DNA of 64,000 nt from an uncultured Verrucomicrobiae bacterium (GTDB lineage Bacteria > Verrucomicrobiota > Verrucomicrobiia > Limisphaerales > JAFGQR01). The position numbers were made by a program, and so were the translations under genes. This document shows, piece after piece, positions 53,901 through 64,000 of the stretch. Numbering within the stretch: position 1 is the first letter of the stretch; the number at the start of each line of letters is the position of its first letter. The DNA is taken from the NCBI GenBank assembly GCA_963788655.1, contig CAWBHS010000099.1, positions 74,271 through 138,270 of the forward strand. The letters run 5' to 3'. The notes below the pieces were generated by a model. It saw nothing but the letters and a program-made list of their open reading frames with translations. It searched no databases and had not been told where the DNA came from.

Positions 53901-56900
53901 CCACGCGCAATCGCTGCTGGTCGTCACGGCGATGCTACCGTTCTCGATGCCGGCGCCGTGGCTGCGTTGGGTTGGTGAGAGTGTGTAGGAACAATTCGCG
54001 CCCAGTTGCGTGAGCGCGAACGGCTGATCAGCAATCTCGATGAACGTCGTGCGGGGCACACCCGTGGGATTACGTTCCAACACATAACTCACCGTGCCGT
54101 TGCCCGTGCCGTTGGTGCCGGAGGTGAAGGTAATCCAATCGTTGGTGGCCACCACGTGCCAGACGATGCCACTGCACGTGCCATGCAAGGAAACATTCAC
54201 CGTCCCGGTCATATCGCCGTATCCGTGTGTCCGGCTACCGGGCGTGGTCGTGGCGTAGCACGTCGAACCCAATTGCGTCACCGTGAATGGTTGGCCGTTC
54301 ACCAGCACGACCCCCGTGCGCAAATTACGATCCAGACTGGGAGCCACCGTGTAATCCACACCGGCGTCACCGGCCCCCGTGGTCGGGGAATGGAGGGTGA
54401 TCCAGTGATTCGGATTGACGATCGTCCAACCGCACTCGGGGCTGCTCAACACGCGAAAGTTTCCGCTTCCCCCTTGGGCCCCGTAGGTCGCCTCGCTGGG
54501 CGCTACGAAATATTCGCATGGGGCGGCTTGTTGAATCACGGTGAACGGTTGGCCGCCGATGGTGAACACGCAGGTGCGCGGCACGGGATTCGGGTTACGG
54601 AACACGGCGTACCGCACCGTGTCGCTGCCGGTGCCGTTGGTAATAATTTTGATGTCCATCCAACTGTTGGTGTTGAGCGCCTCCCAATCGCACGTGCTCA
54701 AAGTGGTGATGTTCACCGTGGCCGTTTCGCCCTCGTAACCATGGACGCGGTGATCGGGCGTCAGCACAAACGTGCAAGGCGCCGCGGCTTGATTCACGCT
54801 AAACATCTGCCCGGCGATGCGTAGGGAACCGCTTCGCACCAGGCGGTCGGGATTGGCGGTCACGAGGTAACTCACCACGCCATTGCCGGTGCCGTTGGTC
54901 GCGGTGGTCAGGGTGATCCAATCGTTCGTGTTGACCACAGTCCAGGCACAGCCGTTGCCCGAACGTCACATCGATCGAGCCAGTTCCCCCCGTCGAGTCC
55001 AAGAACGCTTCGTTCGCGTTCAACGCATACTTGCAAGTGCCCGCCACGCTCACATTCGCGCCCGCAAAGCTTGCCGGAATTATTGCGCCATCGGTTCCCA
55101 ACAACTCACCGGCTACCGGCAAATCACCAAAGGTGACATGCGAGGTCATCGTATCGGCACTGGGTATGGTTTGGAAACAGACCTCGGCCACTTCGTTGAC
55201 GCCCAGCGGAAAGGTTGCGCCGGGGGGCAGGGTCAACGCAAAGCCAACGCGACCACTCGAGAGTTGGTTGGTGAACACCTCCAAAGTGGCCACGCTCACG
55301 TTACTGCCTGCTTGGGCCCAGACCAGGGCGAGCACGCCGGGATCGTAATCCAAACTGAAACGCAGTGCGTTCTCGCCACCCTGGGTTTCCAGGAAGATCG
55401 GCACACAGCCCGTTTGTCCGCTGAGAATCGTCGCGTCGCCGACGCTGACGACCCGCGTCCGGCTGACCTGTTCCACGAGCATGGCCTGGCCCGCGATCAC
55501 CAAGTAACCGCTCCGCGTCGGTCCTGGATTGGCGGGGATGGTGTAGGTCACGACCGCGCTGCCGCTGCCGGTGGCAGTCGAAGTCAGGGTAATCCAATTG
55601 TTCGTGTTCACCGCACTCCATGAGCACGCGCTGCTCGTCCAGACGTTGACTTCTCCGGATTCGGGCGCGCCGCTGTGTTGCCGAACCAGCGGCGCGACTT
55701 CGTAACCGCAATTGGTTCCCCATTGGGTGATAGCGAATACCTGGTCGGCCACGAGCAGCAAACCGGTGCGCGGATCAGCGGTGTGATTGTCCGTCAAGGC
55801 GTAAGTGAGGTCGGCGGTCCCGACGTAGTTGCTTCCGGACGTGAGCGTGATCCAATCATTGGTATTGAGAACCGTCCACGGACAGTCCCCTTTGGTAGTC
55901 ACTTTGGTCGATCCCGCGGTCGTCCCGTAACCATGAAACTTGTGCGCCGGTGAAGGCGTGAAGGTGCAGAGCACACCCTCCTGCGTGAGAGCGAATGCTT
56001 GGTCGCCCAGGAGCAGATACCCGGTCCGAGTCTTGATGCTGGGATTGGCCGTAATGGCGTAGGAGACACTGCCATTGCCAGTGAAATGCGTACCGGAAGT
56101 GATCGTAATCCAATCGTTCGTGTTGATGACATCCCACACGCACTGGGCGGTGGTTTCCACGTTGACCGTTCCGGTGCTGGTGCCGTAACCGTGCGTTCGT
56201 TCCGGCGGCGAGAGCACCGTCGAACACAGCACCGCCCGAATGGCTACGGGCGCGGACACCGCTTCAGCCCCGGCCGGATCAGCCACCCGCGCCCGCACCA
56301 ATCGGCTGCCCACGGTGAGATACCGCGTCGTGTATCGCGGAAACGTGCTCGGGGGCGTGTCGAAAATTCCGTCACCATTCAGATCCCACTCGACTTCCAA
56401 GAGTGAGGAACTGTGCTCGGCGTCAAACGTGGCTGAGGCATCCAACAACACGTCCTCGCCAAGGCCGACCGTGACCGGGGTGGCCGTGATGAACGGCAAC
56501 GGCGCGTGATTGACCGTCACGGCCGGAACCAGGGTAGCGGTCACCCGTTCTTGGTTGCCCTGAAGATCGATGACCCTGAGCGTGTATTCGTTCGTCTGCC
56601 CGGCGTCATAATAGGGTATGGCCAACGTCGGCGTAGCGCTTTTTCCGGACAAGATCATTTCCCCCACGAGCACTTCGTCGGAGCCTTGTTTCCACGAGAG
56701 CAATGCGGCCGCCAGTCCTCCGCTGTCGGTAGCGGAAAAGGGGATTCGCACCACCCCATTCAACGGAGTGATGGCGCCGGACACGTTGATGGTCACGTGC
56801 GGCTTGGTGTTGTCGGTGAATGGCCGGCCGGGATTGAAATAAGGACAGACGTTCAAGGCCAAGGCCGCGCCGTACGCCAGGCGGGTGTTGTTGTAAGCAA

Positions 56901-59900
56901 ACAACTGCGGTTCGAGCACACCACGGAAGCCGCGGTAACCGAAGCCCAGCAGGTTGCCGTCGAAGTTTTCGTCGTTGCGGTAATCGTGATCCAGGCCCAT
57001 CGCCTCCGCAATCCCCCGCAAACCCGCCCCAAGCGCGGACGAACTAACGCTGCTCAGCGTGGTGCCCTCGTACCAGGGAAAGGTCACGCTCTGCCGCATT
57101 GGATAGGGCCCGACGTTGTCTAAAACGAAGCCATCATAGACGAGCGTGTTGGTCATATACTCCGCGGAATAGAGCGCCAGCGCGTCCCCGCCCATCAACG
57201 TCCAGCCCGGATCATCCTCGGAACCGCCGTCGCTGTGGCTCACCTGCCATCCACCGATGACGGACCCATCCGCGTTCTGGTGGTGCGTCTCCGCCACCAA
57301 CCACCAGATTTGGCCGGGCGTGCCCACCGGCAGACCGGCGGCGCGGGCGGCATTAATAATCCGGTCACCCGCAGGATCGCCGGTCAGGAACGTGTCAGTT
57401 TGCGGCAGTGACACCGTGTGAATCATCGGGGTCAAACCGTCGGCTTCGGTTTCCATGGTGAAGGTCTTCCTGCCGAAACCATTTCGTTCCATTTGATCGC
57501 GGAACCAGTCGCGGTAAATACGGATTGCGGATTGCAAATTGGTGACGCCGTTGCTTTGGGCGGTTCGATTGGCGGGAATCAAATAGCCGACCCGCACCAT
57601 TGGGTCCGGACGCAGCACATTGATCGGCACGGTCGCGGTGGCGGTCATGTAGTAATTGGTATCGTCCGGCGTGAAGCGCACCGAGAGCGTCTGCCCGTGC
57701 AACGCTGCCAACACTGTCCCCAGCGGCGGCGTGTAGGTCATCGTTCCCGGCACATCGGCAGTGGCGTTCAGTTGAAGTTCGGAAAGCGCGGTGCCCACGG
57801 AGATGTCCGCCGGCCTGGGCCAGGTGACCAGCGGGACCAGCAGGCCGGTATCGATCACATTGATGGAAACCGTCGCCGTCACCATGGTGTAATTGTTCGT
57901 ATCGTCCGGCGTGAACCGGACCGACAATGGCAGTTCCAAACCAGCCTCCAGGATTGTGCCCAACGGTGGCGTATATTCAAACGCCCCCGGCACACTGGCC
58001 GTGGCGTTGAGTTCGGCAGCGCCCAACGGAATGCCGCGGCTGATATTGGCAGGCTTGGACCACTCGATCACCGGATGCGCCGGTAGCACATCGAGCGTCA
58101 GGGTACGAGTGGCTTGATGGTAATTATTTGGATCGCTGGGCTTGAAGGTGGCGGACAAGAGTTGATCTAAGCCTGCGTTCAATATCGTTCCCAGCGGCGG
58201 ATTATAGACGAATGTCCCCGACACATTTGCGGTGGCATTAAATTGGGCGGCACCCAAGGGCGTGCCAAAAACAATGGCATCTGGATTGGCCCAGGCGATC
58301 ACGGGATTCGCCTTCAGCACATTGATCGTCACGGTGTGGGTGACCGGCGAATAGTTCTCGGTATCGGTGGGCGTGAAGGTCACCGACAACTGCTGGCCGT
58401 TGCCCGCCGTCAGCAAGGTTCCCAGGCCAGGCTCGTAGGCAAATGTCCCCGGCACGTTGGCGGTCGCATTCAGTTGAATCGTGCCCAACGCTGTTGGAAA
58501 AGTAATGTCCGTGGGCGCGGGCCAGTCCAGGACGGGAAGGCTTTTGCGCCGCCACGCCGGCCCGGCCTCAGCCTCGGTCAACGGCGGGTTGATCACGGGG
58601 TCCGTCGAGGCTTGATCGCAACCAATGTCTTTGGCTGACGGTCGGATTTGTCCTTCCATGTCGTCAGTCACGAAATCATACACGCCCTGTGCGGTGCCCA
58701 GGGCCGGGCTGTCCGGGCCCGGACGCCACAAGCCATCGGCATCAAACAGAAGCCGGGGATCGGCCAGCAAGATGCCGCTGTTGGTGGGGATGCCCAGCGT
58801 GGTAGCTTGCAGGAGATTGCCCTGCCAGACGAGGTTCACCGGCTCGATGCGCTGGTCAATCATGAGGCGGCCACTCACCTGCGCCAGGTTGTTGGCGATG
58901 GTGCAATCCACCGGCGGCAGCGTAGTCGTTTCGGTGGAACCGGTAAGCGTGCCCGCCAGTCCGACCACGAAAGTAGCTTTACAATCCACCAACGTGTTAA
59001 AGGCGACGACAGCACGCTGCACTTGGAAATAGCCATTGAGCGGACTGTTTTCCAATCCTTGCATGATACTCAACGCGGCCCGGCTGCTCGTGCCCGACAG
59101 TTCCGCGAAGTAATTGTTAAATACCCGATGGTCCTCCCCCACAATCCGCACCCCGCCGGTCAGTGGCTTGAGGTGGCCGAAGAAATAATTGTCCTCGACC
59201 ACGCAACGGTTGCCGTGCCGCAAGGTCAGGGCGCCTTCACACTCGACAAACGTGTTGTAGCGATACGTGTTCTCGCACGATTTGTTGGAGACAAATTCCG
59301 CGTCGCCGTTGCACTGGTAGAAATAGTTTTGTTCGACCACGCAACGCGCGACGTTCAATGACACGTCGCTGGTGCCGACCCGAATTGTTTCTCCGCCGTT
59401 CACGGCCAGGGCCGGACGGGGACCAAAGAAATTGTGATCGAGCCGATGGTAGTTGGGTTGGCTGTCCACCCACACGGCCACCGTGGCGCCCTCGTTGGTC
59501 TTGCCTTCGAGGTAACAATGGTCCACCCGATTGCTCACCCCATACAGGGAAACCCATTTGTTATCGTTGGCAATGGTGGGTGGATTGTAATTGATGATGG
59601 CGCACTCGGTCAGCCGGGAGTTGTTGGCCACCAACCCGCTGTCCTCACGAAAGGCAATGACATCGCTCGTGGCGGCGTAACCGTTGGTGAACATCAGTCC
59701 TTCGACGACCAGCCAGTTCCCGAACAACCGCAACCTTGAGTTGCCGCTCAGAATGGTTTGGCCGGGAATTTCCGCCCGCAATGTGAGCGGTCGTGCCGCG
59801 GTGCCGTTGCCGTGAAACAGCAGGTCTGCATCCCACCAGACGCCGTGCCGCAGGATCACCGTGTCACCAGGACGCATCAGTGAAACGGCTTCAGCGAGCT

Positions 59901-60696
59901 CGGTCGGATTGGCGGCCCAATAATCCATGCCCCCGGTTGGAATCCCCGCTTGCGTGATGGTAAACGTCTGACCGGCAACCTGCACCCGACCGATCCGTTC
60001 AGTTTCATTCGGGTTTGCCGCCACCGCGTAGCTCACGCTCCCGCTGCCGGTAACGTTCGTGCCCGACGTGATCGTGATCCAACTATTGGTGTTGCTCACG
60101 CTCCAATTACAGCCGGTGTCGGTGGTGACCCCCACCCCACCCAGACCGCCGCTCGCCGAAATGTTCACGGCATTGGTGGTAAGCGCAAACTGGCATACTC
60201 CCTGAATCGTTACCGTGGCGTCGGTGTAATCCGCAGTCAACGTTGCGGCAATGGCGTCGGCAATCTCGCGTCCGATCGGCTGGTCCCCAAACTGCACCGG
60301 CGTCATGACGGTGGGACCGCCCGGCGCGGCCGCGAAACAAACTTCGAGGACGGCGTTGGATCCGGCCGGGAACACCTGGCCAAAGCTTAACCCGATGGCA
60401 AAGCCGACCCGCCCCTGCGCCAGTTGGCTTTGGTTGACGAACCAGGACGCGCCATTCGCACCGCTGCCCAGTCGGGCCGAGGAAAACGTCAACCGATTCG
60501 TGTCGAATCCCAAACTGAATCCCAGCGCATTCTCGTCGCCGTGAGAATTCAAGACGACCGTCAGGCAATTGGTTTGACCGCGCGCAACCAGCAGGTCAGT
60601 GCCGGTTAAACTCCGGTCGGCTCCGTAACTGGAAAACGCCAGCAACCAGGCCAGGAACAGGGTGAGCCCCGTCCGCTTGGTAATTAGATTATTCAT
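47901..60696 (-). CDS. Giant (about 4,260 aa) secreted multidomain protein: PL6 lyase, cohesin-like x3, BACON x9, MBG-like x4, dead metallopeptidase, PKD, (jelly-roll + Ig) array; frameshifted at about 54960
   Basis: ORFs 54799-61011 and 47901-54938 join inside one BACON repeat (DVT|SGNGCAWTVVNTNDW) when one base is removed. Signal peptide from ATG 60696; RFYRVRLVE tail. Confidence 0.88.
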
Positions 60697-61072
60697 AGAC
60701 CGCGCACAAACATCTGGTTCATCCAGTATCCCCGCGTCCTTTACGTTGAATTCAGCCGGCGGCGGCCCTGAACTCGTTGGTTGGCAGCGAATCCAGTGCA
60801 GCGTCACGCACCACGGCATTCGCAGGGAACTCACGCAAGCGAGTACATCCTGGATGACGAGGCACCGCGGCATAGGAGTGGCCCGCTGCCGCAATTTTGC
60901 TGAGAAGCCCTTCCTTGGCTCTTGTAAGTTGAGGTGTTTATACGTAATCCGGCGGGTAATGTCAATCCGAATCCCCACCTCGAAAAAGCGTCTTGAAACC
61001 ACCAAATTCAACTGGCCGAAAGGACCGAAGAAGCCGAAGAACCCTCCTTCACCGGCATTCGTTTCTTTCGGC

Positions 61073-61282
61073 CAAACCGCGGTGCGGGCACTGGCCCACC
61101 AATGGCAGCGGATCTTCTGGCGATGCGGGCAGCGCCACGAGCTCTATGACGAGGCGCGTTATGAGGCGGCACTGCGCCGCCACGGCACTCCGATCGTGGC
61201 GTTGTTCGATCAGATTGAGTTAGGCAAAAATCCCTACACCAGCCGCCAGAAAAAGGCCACCAAAGCTGCGAAGAAAAAATGA
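61073..61282 (+). pseudogene. C-terminal fragment of an IS110-family transposase
   Basis: AVRALAHQWQRIFWRCGQRHELYDEARYEAALRRHGTP matches the IS110 C-terminal A.RALA.KW.RI.WRCW...YDE.RY pattern, recognised from memory. Confidence 0.75.
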
Positions 61283-61771
61283 AAAACTTGTTGATCGCTC
61301 GACCGATTTTGTCTCCTCACTGACCGACATCAGTGTCATCAACTCTGCCATGCTGGCAAACACGGGGAGTCTTTCCGCCGCGGTGAGACTGAACAGAAGG
61401 ATTGGAGAGTTGGCGTCGCCATCCAATCGGGTGATCCACTGGTCACCGTCGCTCTCGTTCGAGATCGGAACGAAACCCTCTGTAATGATTTCCTCCTCCA
61501 TGATTGGGTCGCCCGAAAGCAGGACATCCCGAAAGTCGCCGGGCGACCAGAACGGGTAAAAGCGCCTCCATGTCTTATGGGGCATCTCCATCACGAGGCC
61601 GAGCAGGGCGTGTTGCTCCATCAACTCTGGGATCCATGCGGGAATCAGCCGCTGAACCTCCGGCGGCAAAGTCGCCCACTCGGCGTGCTGCACCCTGCGT
61701 GAGCGCACACCCATTTCTTGTAAGCGTGCTTGCGCACGGCGGGCAGCGACGGCTAATGGTTCTGGTAGCAT
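61220..61771 (-). CDS. SMI1/KNR4 (SUKH) family-like protein, C-terminus probably replaced by IS110 remnant sequence
   Basis: GFVPISNESDGDQW...SPILLF...VFASMAELM. AGAGG RBS before ATG 61771. Confidence 0.6.
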   Translation of the reverse strand: MLPEPLAVAARRAQARLQEMGVRSRRVQHAEWATLPPEVQRLIPAWIPELMEQHALLGLVMEMPHKTWRRFYPFWSPGDFRDVLLSGDPIMEEEIITEGFVPISNESDGDQWITRLDGDANSPILLFSLTAAERLPVFASMAELMTLMSVSEETKSVERSTSFSFFLRSFGGLFLAAGVGIFA

Positions 61772-61791
61772 AGCAAAACCTCTTATGACGC

Positions 61792-61866
61792 ACCGGGTAG
61801 GCGTCATTGGTTACCCGCCGACGCCCCCCTAAGAACCGTACGTGAAAGTTTCCCTTCATACGGCTC
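61792..61866 (-). ncRNA. Group II intron catalytic domains V and VI
   Basis: 34-nt GAGCCGTATGAAGGGAAACTTTCACGTACGGTTC (AGC triad, GAAA loop, AC bulge), then the DVI stem GGG-GGGCGTCG...TGACGCCT-A-CCC. Confidence 0.96.
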
Positions 61867-61947
61867 AAGCCTTTCAAAGGCCGTCGTTGATCCGGACGAC
61901 CCAGCTATCAGAGTTTTGGCCATAATAACAAGCCTTTCGAGAGCCGA

Positions 61948-63438
61948 TTATACGCCCCCGGTCGCCCGAGGCGAGCCGTTTCCTACGGGGTAACTGCGCC
62001 AGGCAAAGCACCGACGCTTCTCGAAATACTTGACCCAGTCCGGATGATAAGGATTGGCCTCGGCTTTCACTTTAATGTGCCGATCCATCACCGTCTGGAG
62101 CAGATTCCGCAGCTTCAACAATCGCGGCTCGCCGTCTCGGGTGCGAACCCAAGTCGAAAAGCAGCCTTTGCCAGCGGCGGGATAATATTTGCGGCGTCGC
62201 CAAGTCCAGGATTTCTTGGGATGCCGCCGTTTCATCCATCGCCAGAGCAGGTCGTTCACGTACCGATCAACCTGATAGAATGCTTCTCGGGCGACGACAT
62301 GGCGGTGGTAGTTGGCCCACCCCCGCAGGATTGGATTTAACGTTCGGATTAACACTTCGGTCGCCAGACCCCGACCTTGCCGAATGCACTGTCGGGCTTT
62401 CTCCCGTATCCCGGCAATCGCCTTGCGGGAGGGAGTGATCCGAAGTTTCTTTCCCCGTTTGCGCAGGTTCTGTCCCAGGAAGTCAAAACCTTCCTCGATA
62501 TGGGTGATCTTGGTCTTTTCCTCTGAGAGACTCAGGCCCCGTTCCTTCAGGAAGGAGGCGATCACCGGTTTGACCTTGTCTTCGAGGGTTTCCCGACGTG
62601 CCGCCGTGACCACAAAGTCATCCGCATAGCGGATGAAGTTGACCTTGTCATGGCGCGGTCGGATCGCCGCCCGGATGGCGACTTCCAACCCATCGAGGGT
62701 CAGGTTGGCCAACAAAGGGGAGGCGATGCCCCCTTGCGGTGCTCCCGCTTCGGTCGGAAAGAGCCGACCTGCTTCCAGATAACCGGCGCGCAGCCATTTG
62801 CTCAGGATCTCGCGATCCATCGGGATGTGCTGGAGCAACCAGTCGTGGCTGATTTCGTCGAAACAGCTTTTAATATCCCCTTCCAGAACCCAGACCGGCG
62901 CGTAGCTCTTGGCCAGTGCGTTGAAGCACTGCCCAATGGCATCGGCGCAACTACGGCCTTCCCGGAAACCATAGGAGTTCTTGTCAGCGCAAGTCTCCGC
63001 AATCGGTTTCAAAGCCAAGGCATGGAGGGCTTGATGGGCGCGGTCAGTCATCACCGGAATACTGAGCGGCCTTAATTTGCCGTTCTTTTTCGGGATGTAG
63101 AGACGCCTCAGGGGTTGCGGTTGATAGCCGCGTTGTTTGAGGCGCGATACCGCTGCGAACTTTTGTGAATCGGTTCGCCAGACCTGTCCATCGACTCCGG
63201 GCGTGGCGTGTCCTTTGTTACTCGTCACCCATTGAACGGCCAGTAATTTGGCCGCGCCCGAGTGCGTGAGAATCCACTGCAGGGCTTTTGCCCGGCCGTG
63301 GTCGTTTTCTCTGACCGCCTTGGCAATACGCATCTGCAGCCGTTTGACCGAGGCGCGCACGGATTCCCAGTTCAGGGCTTTCCATGCGGTGCCGCGACCG
63401 GAGGACGCACCAGTCGATCCCGAAAGATCAACCGTCAT
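61948..63438 (-). CDS. ltrA: Group II intron reverse transcriptase/maturase, no HNH endonuclease
   Basis: RVT_N (VKRLQMRIAKA), TPGVDG, PQGGIASPLLAN, RYADDFVV, GFDFLG, LNPILRGWANYH; ends after ANPY..YFEKR. GGAG RBS before ATG 63438; ORF open to 63456. Confidence 0.96.
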   Translation of the reverse strand: MTVDLSGSTGASSGRGTAWKALNWESVRASVKRLQMRIAKAVRENDHGRAKALQWILTHSGAAKLLAVQWVTSNKGHATPGVDGQVWRTDSQKFAAVSRLKQRGYQPQPLRRLYIPKKNGKLRPLSIPVMTDRAHQALHALALKPIAETCADKNSYGFREGRSCADAIGQCFNALAKSYAPVWVLEGDIKSCFDEISHDWLLQHIPMDREILSKWLRAGYLEAGRLFPTEAGAPQGGIASPLLANLTLDGLEVAIRAAIRPRHDKVNFIRYADDFVVTAARRETLEDKVKPVIASFLKERGLSLSEEKTKITHIEEGFDFLGQNLRKRGKKLRITPSRKAIAGIREKARQCIRQGRGLATEVLIRTLNPILRGWANYHRHVVAREAFYQVDRYVNDLLWRWMKRRHPKKSWTWRRRKYYPAAGKGCFSTWVRTRDGEPRLLKLRNLLQTVMDRHIKVKAEANPYHPDWVKYFEKRRCFAWRSYPVGNGSPRATGGV

Positions 63439-64000
63439 TTGCTTCTCCCCCTGCATCGGTTCTACCTATTCTCTTGCCAAGAAAGACCCGATCGAAGTGG
63501 GTCTATCCGATCCATTACAGACCGGTTTTTACTTTTTCGATCCTCTCAAAGCTGCTTCCCCTGAGCCGGCCTTGCGGTGGGCTTGCCTGGAAACCGTCCA
63601 GGCGGGATACCCGCAGCTTTTCCATGTTCCGCATTCATCACGAGATGGGTTAGGTCCACTCTCTACACCGGCGGTGCGCCATTCGCGTCGGGCCACGTTA
63701 GACAGCCCGAACCTGACCGCTGGCCTTATTTTGGCCGGAGCCTTAAAACAGCCTCGTCTGGCTCGTTCCTCTGACGATGCTTGCGAGTGTTCACGTGGGT
63801 TGACCCTACCATCCAATTCTAGCGCCGCACCCGGATTGAGGCTCCCAGGCTGGCTACATTGTCGGGAAGGCTTCACACCCTGGACAGTAGCCTTGCGGCC
63901 GCCCGCCTAACGCATGCTTCCTTGGAATACCTGCCGCGAAAGGCAGGACTGAGTCAGGTTGCCCATGCTCAGCAGTGATGAATGCGACTTCATGTCACAA

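Follow-up and report, generated by a model that had tools for sequence, protein, structure and literature searches.

A family of group II introns inserted in the top strand of integron attC sites in a Verrucomicrobiae genome

The stretch of DNA analysed here, the window, comprises 64,000 nt of an uncultured Verrucomicrobiae bacterium (assembly GCA_963788655.1, contig CAWBHS010000099.1, positions 74,271 to 138,270; contig C99 below) and carries at its end a full-length group II intron of 2209 nt, which lies on the minus strand (64000-61792) and reads 5'-UUGUGAC...CCCGGU-3'. The signatures of group II introns are all present: a ribozyme with domain I and domains V and VI (Rfam RF00029 at 61868-61792, 63.9 bits where the gathering score is 40) and a reverse transcriptase (RT) with a maturase (X) domain. 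The RT likely starts at the ATG at 63438, which is preceded by GGGGAG, and a Pfam search of its open reading frame (ORF, 63456-61948) found no nuclease (En) domain. The intron is complete and, as a self-splicing mobile element, probably active. An earlier note, made from the letters of the window, had placed the domain I hairpin, the bulged A, the intron end and the 3' exon with its ATG correctly, at the positions listed in Table 1, and had predicted from the hairpin loop that the intron homes into integron attachment sites. Because contig C99 stops at window position 64000, which is intron nucleotide 1, the 5' exon of the window copy itself, and with it the empty site CGTTAG|GCGTCAT that the earlier note proposed, is unreadable, and the target was read from other copies.

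The RT is far closer to one solved relative, chain C of 6ME0 (T.el4h, E 1.7e-167), than to any other, all of which score 9e-39 or weaker (LtrA, 9e-39; GsI-IIC RT, 1.9e-33). Th.e.I3/T.el4h is a IIB1 intron with a chloroplast-like 1 (CL1) RT (PMC8643678). The RT of the window intron is accordingly predicted to be of CL1 type and the intron IIB1-like, and its distance from the GsI-IIC RT argues that it is not a class C intron, in keeping with the earlier description of it as non-IIC, IIB-type and En-minus. A search of the plasmid collection with the RT returned 1873 records, all below 60% identity, and no closer or annotated integron case.

Using the intron as blastn query, we found 14 copies or fragments in the genome. 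Full-length copies on contigs C44 and C46 are 99.5% and 99.1% identical to the window copy over the whole length, and the RT is intact in these three; a more distant full-length copy on C50 (68.5% identical) has decayed, with its RT frame broken into three pieces. Seven copies are 817-nt derivatives without the ORF (on C93, C49, C80, C17 and C9, and two on C59), which are 98.3-99.8% identical to one another and still pass both Rfam models. The remaining three are fragments (C9 contig end, C27 and C56). Twelve copies have a visible 5' junction, which follows CGTTAG in nine, CGTTGG in two and CGTTAGG in one; since the sister junctions read this way, the intron-binding site 1 (IBS1) that had been predicted for the window copy, CGTTAG, is what the genome displays. 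At the 12 visible 3' junctions the flanks diverge right after CCCGG(T), each differently, and most of them offer a start codon within a few tens of bases. The first nucleotide of the 3' exon is G in five copies and C in five, with two ambiguous, and inspection by eye of the sites that vary among the copies found no covarying partner for it that could serve as exon-binding site 3 (EBS3). An intron-less paralogue on C59 of the cassette that lies downstream of the C49 copy provides an empty site, ...GATTCGTTAG|CCCGTGCGAACG..., and its comparison with the occupied C49 site, ...CGGCGTTAG|intron|CCCGTGCGTGCGAACG..., defines the insert as TTGTGAC...CCCGGT. Because the C49 and C17 introns differ at just 4 of 817 positions and their attC flanks are just 88.7% identical, we regard the insertions as independent events.

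Two observations concern the copies themselves. Compared with the full-length copies, each of the seven ORF-less ones has a single extra base in the lower helix of domain V, and RF00029 still scores 49.6 bits (for example at L105:8223-8300). In an alignment of these copies the full-length and ORF-less families are near-identical over the first ~400 nt and clearly more diverged in domains II-IV (nucleotides 1-400 versus 400-570), which suggests recombination or template switching between the two families.

The 5' flanks of the copies share a layout of xxCYAAC, a spacer, CGAAC, a variable centre, GTCGSTSA, a second spacer and CGTTRGxx, and their alignment contains the invariant blocks AAC / CGAAC / GTC..T.A / CGTT.G of an attC site. 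Folding of 16 empty sites with RNAalifold yielded 16 consensus pairs, which join R'' with R' and L'' with L', and eight of them show compensatory changes, including CTAAC/GTTAG versus CCAAC/GTTGG. A covariance model built from this 16-site alignment matches the genome at least 101 times (E 0.01 or better), with the hits clustered in arrays, a lower bound given that 150 of 10,626 first-look candidates were scored; about one tenth of the detected attCs are occupied by the intron. The model hits nine of the 12 intron 5' flanks, and because all nine hits share the strand of the intron, the intron occupies the cassette-sense (top) strand, as the earlier note had foreseen. The insertion point follows position 5 of the R' core and precedes position 6 (C-GTTRG | xx). 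At the R' cores of attCs, these copies document top-strand insertion that was site-specific, repeated and recent. The earlier note had also envisaged attI as a target, and no insertion into attI was seen among the copies.

Three integron integrase genes exceed the TIGR02249 cut-off of 265 (396.6, 352.1 and 274.7 bits), and those on C59 and C49, each interrupted by one in-frame stop (TAA, TAG), adjoin intron-bearing arrays. In the C49 array the minus strand carries the integrase gene and the plus strand both the attCs, from 290282 onward, and the ORF-less intron at 295283-296099; the layout on C59 mirrors this arrangement. The hallmarks of integron attC sites, namely an R''(RYYYAAC)-L''...L'-R'(GTTRRRY) palindrome, arrays and an integrase, are thus found together at the sister loci and not in the window itself. 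In Rfam no family reached E 0.01 with the attCs of the C49 array. An attC count by regular expression proved too noisy (25 hits, with 7 in a control of reversed sequence), and the covariance model superseded it.

Table 1 Features of the intron, its downstream flank and the integron integrase genes of the genome (positions in the window unless a contig is named).
Feature	Position	Strand	Evidence or remark
Full-length group II intron	61792..64000	-	Rfam matches, near-identical C44/C46 copies, flank comparison, intron-less paralogous cassette
Non-canonical 5' end UUGUGAC (U for G at nucleotide 1)	63994..64000	-	at contig end
Domain I segment	63823..63948	-	RF02012 (group-II-D1D4-7), 59.5 bits, gathering score 34, E 1.4e-10
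T-C-A + GAGGA, homologous to EBS2a (C 63773) and EBS2 (63771-63767) of relatives	63767..63774	-	
EBS1 hairpin TCGGGCTG-TCTAACG-TGGCCCGA (63710-63688), EBS1 CUAACG at 63701-63696	63688..63710	-	sequence and covariation
RT/maturase ORF, 502 aa from first ATG	61948..63456	-	Pfam RVT_N, RVT_1, GIIM; YADD motif present
Domain V, 34 nt, AGC triad, GAAA loop	61833..61866	-	RF00029 alignment
Domain VI, bulged branch A at 61798 (seventh nucleotide from the 3' end, the A included); intron ends at 61792	61795..61829	-	RF00029 alignment
3' exon: 20-nt leader GCGTCATAAGAGGTTTTGCT with Shine-Dalgarno sequence AAGAGG, then ATG at 61771	61772..61791	-	
Cassette-like ORF, 183 aa	61220..61771	-	no Pfam family
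Possible half attC: GCCTAAC (R''-like, contains the ORF stop codon) + CGAAC (L''-like)	61204..61225	-	attC consensus comparison
Integron integrase gene	C59:66134-67021		one in-frame stop; adjoins intron-bearing array
Integron integrase gene	C49:288364-289293	-	one in-frame stop; adjoins intron-bearing array
Integron integrase gene	C69:40024-40947		intact, at contig end

To dissect how the intron recognizes this site, we collected relatives with the RT as query, 79 loci from genome contigs and 79 from metagenome contigs (labelled L), and placed the intron ends with iterated nhmmer profiles. The homologues of the hairpin at 63710-63688 pair 6/6 with the last six exon nucleotides in 45 of 59 distinct intron/exon combinations (G-U allowed), against 9.7% when partners are mismatched, and a blind scan of the whole domain I-III alignment returned a pairing signal at this hairpin alone (48 of 70 rows, 4.4 expected). 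Since the loop at 63701-63696 covaries with the 5' exon across relatives, it is exon-binding site 1 (EBS1), as the earlier note had proposed. EBS1 also tracks the local core where that core differs: CGAACG accompanies GTTCG in L063, GCGAAC accompanies GTTCGC in L079 and CAUAAC accompanies GTTATG in L070. At L010 an ORF-less copy has EBS1 CCUAAC, the complement of GTTAGG, and the full copy at a visible GTTAGG junction has CUCAAC, which pairs 5/6.

The same covariation bears on whether CGTTAG is a targeting signal at all, since the copies might instead have spread by segmental duplication or homologous recombination of the intron together with its flank, in which case CGTTAG would merely have been inherited. 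The C44 and C46 copies, whose 150-nt 5' flanks are 97% identical, fit such a history and may be duplicates, or strain variants within the metagenome-assembled genome. The other 5' flanks are unrelated or 74-89% identical around introns that are 98-99.8% identical, the 3' flanks all differ, and the flank-complementary loop follows the flank in distant relatives of other phyla. These observations largely refute spread by duplication, which we consider highly improbable as the origin of the family.

EBS2 behaves differently in the attC-targeting group. A scan with 6-mers gave no clear EBS2 signal, and the signal emerged after a conserved CG-TNA motif had been located: the 5-mer that follows the motif forms 5/5 Watson-Crick pairs with exon positions -13 to -9 in 17 of 43 relatives with non-attC targets, versus none of the 24 GTT-core (attC-type) sites. 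The EBS2a/-14 pair described in PMC8643678 occurs in 26 of the 43 and in 5 of the 24. On average, GTT-core sites form 2.92 EBS2 pairs versus 2.49 with shuffled partners, compared with 3.93 versus 2.50 at other targets. EBS2-IBS2 pairing therefore appears relaxed to near chance in the attC-targeting group. The window intron has the motif as TCA-GAGGA at 63774-63767. Recognition seems to rest on the 6-bp EBS1 pairing, possibly with help from the attC hairpin or the protein.

Near-chance EBS2 pairing and an attC hairpin directly upstream of the insertion point are also what would be expected of a class C intron of the IIC-attC kind, which has no EBS2 and would recognise the hairpin together with a short IBS1. 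The features that define group IIC-attC introns, a class C RT with a small EBS2-less ribozyme and bottom-strand, antisense insertion at TTGT/T in R'', were not found here. The RT is closer by far to the CL1 RT (E 1.7e-167 versus 1.9e-33 to the GsI-IIC RT), the ORF-less copies put the ribozyme at ~817 nt, and the EBS2 loop motif seen in relatives is kept. Moreover, insertion is into the sense strand at GTTRG|, not at the TTGT/T of R'' used by IIC-attC introns (PMC7923331, PMC3001079). A class C assignment is in our judgement scarcely credible.

The conditions under which the earlier note wanted its reading refuted were checked on the sister copies, and none of them holds there. Taken together, the data make it very probable that the window intron is an intact member of an En-less, CL1-type (IIB1-like) family that retrohomes into the top strand of attC sites at C-GTTRG|xx of the R' core. 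In the mechanism we propose, the target would be chosen mainly by 6 bp between EBS1 CUAACG and the terminal six nucleotides of the 5' exon (CGTTAG; CGTTGG is matched through a G-U pair), and the largely relaxed EBS2-IBS2 contact would allow entry into attCs with differing spacers. The ribonucleoprotein would reverse-splice into the top strand and, because there is no endonuclease, the RT would presumably prime on nascent DNA at replication forks. The full-length copies (window, C44 and C46) most likely supply RT/maturase in trans to the seven 817-nt ORF-less derivatives. GC skew, taken as a proxy for the strand of replication, is positive on the intron-sense strand in 10 of 13 copies, with all values at or below 0.017 in size against a genome-wide standard deviation of 0.019, and the copies are not independent.

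Several points weigh against this reading. Trans-mobilisation, fork priming and co-transfer with cassettes are all steps that we infer, and the class assignment rests on likeness to one solved CL1 RT, not on a class-labelled tree. Three of the 12 sister 5' flanks (C50, C80 and C9b) are not hit by the attC model. The assembly is 86% complete with 5.6% contamination, and its contigs therefore need not all come from one cell line. Public sequencing runs gave no read evidence on splicing or polymorphic empty sites, with at most 0.11 of the sampled words present in any run; contigs from four runs that were compared cover parts of the intron at 90-99% likeness, leave the 5' exon uncovered, give no more than trace cover of the 3' flank, in one run, and span no joint at either intron end. 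For the window copy in particular, the 5' exon is missing and a non-attC site is conceivable, the attC model detects no complete attC at window positions 58000-64000 (nothing better than E 0.38 with filters off), and the sole contig ends that stop exactly at CGTTGG in a search for the partner contig, on C20 and C40, are not attC-like.

The last three points raise the question of whether the window copy sits, through retrotransposition, in an ectopic site that is not an attC and merely offers CGTTGG, with only its relatives residing in attCs. On C20 and C40 the first bases, read as reverse complement, end in CGTTGG, the alternative IBS1; by our estimate ~0.1 such ends would be expected by chance, and these ends may be places of ectopic or polymorphic insertion, or may represent the window copy's missing 5' exon. 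In addition, no full attC follows the 183-aa ORF: its half site at 61225-61204, which we grade as weak evidence, is not followed by an L'/R' half. On the other side, the 3' exon of the window copy resembles the start of a cassette, with a 20-nt leader, a Shine-Dalgarno sequence, an ORF and a stop codon inside the GCCTAAC...CGAAC half site; cassette arrays break assemblies, such that the partner contig may be unbinned; and nine of the 12 sister copies reside in model-detected attCs. We judge an ectopic window copy unlikely, and an attC residence of this copy, too, the better account.

The position of the intron has consequences for the integron that bear on two further suggestions of the earlier note, that the insertion blocks cassette recombination and that splicing gates cassette expression. 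The canonical integron crossover is G|TT. The intron lies 4 nt 3' of it, outside the invariant GTT, and thus 4 nt within the boundary of the downstream cassette, in whose 5' leader it stands. Given that location, it should be co-transcribed with the cassettes and spliced out. Co-option by the integron, with recombination blocked at the occupied attC or cassette expression made dependent on splicing, would accord with an insertion within R' and in a cassette leader, and with the occupation of just ~1/10 of the detected attCs. The insertion nevertheless spares the GTT and the hairpin and removes just two outer, poorly paired positions of R' (in the attC alignment, 11 of 16 sequences form a standard pair at the outer column pair 2-138). 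Recombination by IntI may still be possible where the intron is present, because the whole hairpin and the GTT stay upstream. Likewise, translation needs no exon ligation, because the Shine-Dalgarno sequence and the ATG of the downstream cassette lie outside the intron. The near-identical copies, decayed and ORF-less forms among them, are as expected of a selfish element. Both suggestions are left without support, and we hold co-option to be quite improbable. Retrohoming by a resident element remains our preferred reading, under which the intron could in principle travel with the downstream cassette during IntI recombination, although no case of the two moving together was seen.

The R' core is targeted by a lineage and not by this genome's copies alone, as the earlier note had suspected, since relatives in other phyla use the same core. 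In a quick maximum-likelihood tree of 56 RTs, for which SH-aLRT support values only were computed, the copies of this genome group with L012, from a record titled Limisphaerales (100%), and a group of 13 rows (95%) includes 10 that follow a GTT core. The record titles of the 13-row group name Desulfobacterales, Desulfatiglandales, Desulfobulbaceae, Desulfuromonadales, Thermodesulfobacteriota, Chlorobiaceae, Pedobacter and others. L086 (Acidobacteriota) also follows a GTT core, and the tree leaves the relations among these groups unresolved. The five closest relatives from elsewhere with a visible junction (L012, L111, L114, L118 and L122) all read CGTTAG|TTGTGAC. When the exons are joined, 25 of 30 rows of the attC-targeting group have a GTT core together with an R'' candidate, and in 19 the two match at 5/7 positions or more, with a 7/7 match in L063 (GCCGAAC/GTTCGGC) and L028. 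None of 20 control rows with other targets has a GTT core within 8 nt of the junction. The metagenomic loci L122, L149 and L171 also form attC-like hairpins, and ORF-less derivatives recur among the attC-targeting relatives (L010, L076 and L120).

Some of these loci show arrangements of their own. L010, a Desulfospira record, is a cassette array with toxin-antitoxin-like cassettes, in which one full-length and one ORF-less copy of a related intron sit at GTTAGG|; a further attC, which ends CCCCGTTAGC, is empty, and ORFs resembling tyrosine recombinases lie on the opposite strand. At L076:162-5437, a Desulfatiglandales record, three introns stand head to tail, the third being an 825-nt ORF-less copy, and no base separates the second from the first or the third from the second (..CTACTCGAC|GTGCGAC and ..CTACTCGAC|TTGCGAC). 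L120 has a similar head-to-tail arrangement. A separate clade of 12 rows from Vibrio, Photobacterium, Shewanella and Pseudoalteromonas (L044, L047, L054, L057, L064, L066, L068, L071, L077 and others) has canonical GUGCG..AC ends and occupies sites of the form ..CTAAC-N12|intron|N6-8-GTGTTRR, wherein EBS1 (GGACAG, GCCCCA or GGGCAU) and EBS2 match the exons. The inverted CTAAC...GTTRG around these introns suggests another repeat or a short attC-like target.

The intron ends UUGUG...GU depart from the group II consensus GUGYG...AY, and the two deviating positions covary. Of the 66 distinct introns in the genome set, 48 combine G1 with a penultimate A, 17 combine U1 with G and one C1 with G, without exception, such that all 18 introns with a pyrimidine at position 1 have a penultimate G. 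The metagenome set agrees in 38 of 41 cases; L142, L149 and L172 do not, and for some of these the intron ends may have been called wrongly. After lariat formation the first and penultimate nucleotides make a non-Watson-Crick contact (PMC4238363, citing Chanfreau and Jacquier 1993). Further pyrimidine-1/penultimate-G cases are seen in the related introns L157-L163 from metagenome contigs, which begin CUGCG and end GGC.

A wider proposal can be drawn from these distributions, which we put forward as a possibility somewhat short of even likelihood. The introns in records titled Limisphaerales, several Desulfobacterota orders, Chlorobiaceae, Pedobacter and Acidobacteriota may form a widespread CL1/IIB1 clade of specialist integron residents, which have tuned EBS1 to the R' core of their host, given up EBS2 specificity, gained two routes of spread and replaced the G1-A contact by a pyrimidine at position 1 and a penultimate G. 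Because insertion is 4 nt within the cassette boundary, the downstream cassette would come to include the intron, which, if the proposal is true, would spread both by retrohoming and by IntI-mediated cassette exchange; the pyrimidine-1/penultimate-G combination would then be a natural alternative to the G1-A contact of the second splicing step.

The earlier note had suspected that integron-linked IIB introns were already on record, and one is. UHB.I2, published in 2021, is a full IIB1 intron whose CL1 RT is En-minus; it shares the orientation of the cassettes and stands right after an attC, its ends are 5'-UUGCG..GU-3', and its authors remark on poor exon conservation among its homologues (Sonbol and Siam 2021, Mob DNA 12:8, PMC7923331). 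The same combination of 5'-UUGYG..GU-3' ends, En-minus CL1 RT and cassette-sense insertion at the 3' end of an attC is found here on the sister copies. By that paper's description, UHB.I2 occurs once, on one metagenome contig from a soda lake, and no core-pairing rule was proposed for it, whereas the present genome holds a 14-member family with ORF-less derivatives, a covariation-backed pairing of EBS1 with the R' core and a relaxed EBS2. The sense-strand CL1/IIB1 arrangement at attC is thus not new; its kind is barely described, and the present case is unusually well documented. The EBS1-R' core rule, the relaxed EBS2 and the clade-wide distribution were not found stated in a full-text search of the literature that covered few subscription journals, the supplements of PMC7923331 aside.

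Other known introns share some of these properties. The group IIC-attC introns (S.ma.I2 and relatives) are likewise a monophyletic attC-specialised lineage with a short IBS1 beside a hairpin, but are of class C, without EBS2, and insert into the bottom strand at TTGT/T in R'', antisense to the cassettes (PMC3001079, PMC7923331); the window intron is CL1/IIB1-type, sense and in the top strand at GTTRG| of R'. An intron in an Enterobacter cloacae class 1 integron, cited in PMC7923331, occupies an attC's top strand in cassette sense but belongs to class C. A Shewanella CL1 intron in a cassette array is mentioned in one sentence of PMC9229058, which gives no site or mechanism; the Shewanella and Vibrio relatives in our locus set use a different target from the window intron. 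Th.e.I3/T.el4h (PDB 6ME0), the closest solved RT, has the EBS2a-A-EBS2 layout common to relatives of the window intron, and ORF-less derivatives in the Thermosynechococcus genome are mentioned (PMC8643678). Th.e.I3/T.el4h and EcI5, both IIB1 introns with CL1 RTs, differ in having full EBS1, EBS2 and EBS2a pairing and canonical GUGYG..AY ends, and are not attC-specific.

Integrons are the main bacterial gene-capture system, and residents of their recombination sites can reshape cassette arrays. The established attC specialists are class C introns only, inserted backwards, and the sense-strand CL1/IIB1 arrangement had rested on one published metagenomic contig; the genome studied here adds 14 copies, an exact empty site and a pairing rule (EBS1 complementary to C+GTTRG) that follows the local core and holds in several phyla. 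It raises the questions of how a IIB1 intron reaches broad yet precise targeting, whether intron-bearing attCs recombine and whether a pyrimidine at position 1 with a penultimate G supports splicing. A single 6-bp pairing seems enough here, with the EBS2 contact, as a rule essential, apparently relaxed, which may be of interest for targetron engineering.

Two other ORFs lie near the cassette in the window. The plus-strand ORF 60662-61282, considered as a remnant of an attC-targeting insertion sequence (IS) transposase, was dropped for want of a Pfam match. Shortly downstream of the cassette, a giant ORF of ~2000 aa (54799-60738, minus strand) encodes a Chondroitinase B domain (E 2.8e-97), several BACON domains and Ig-like repeats, and is probably a secreted polysaccharide lyase.

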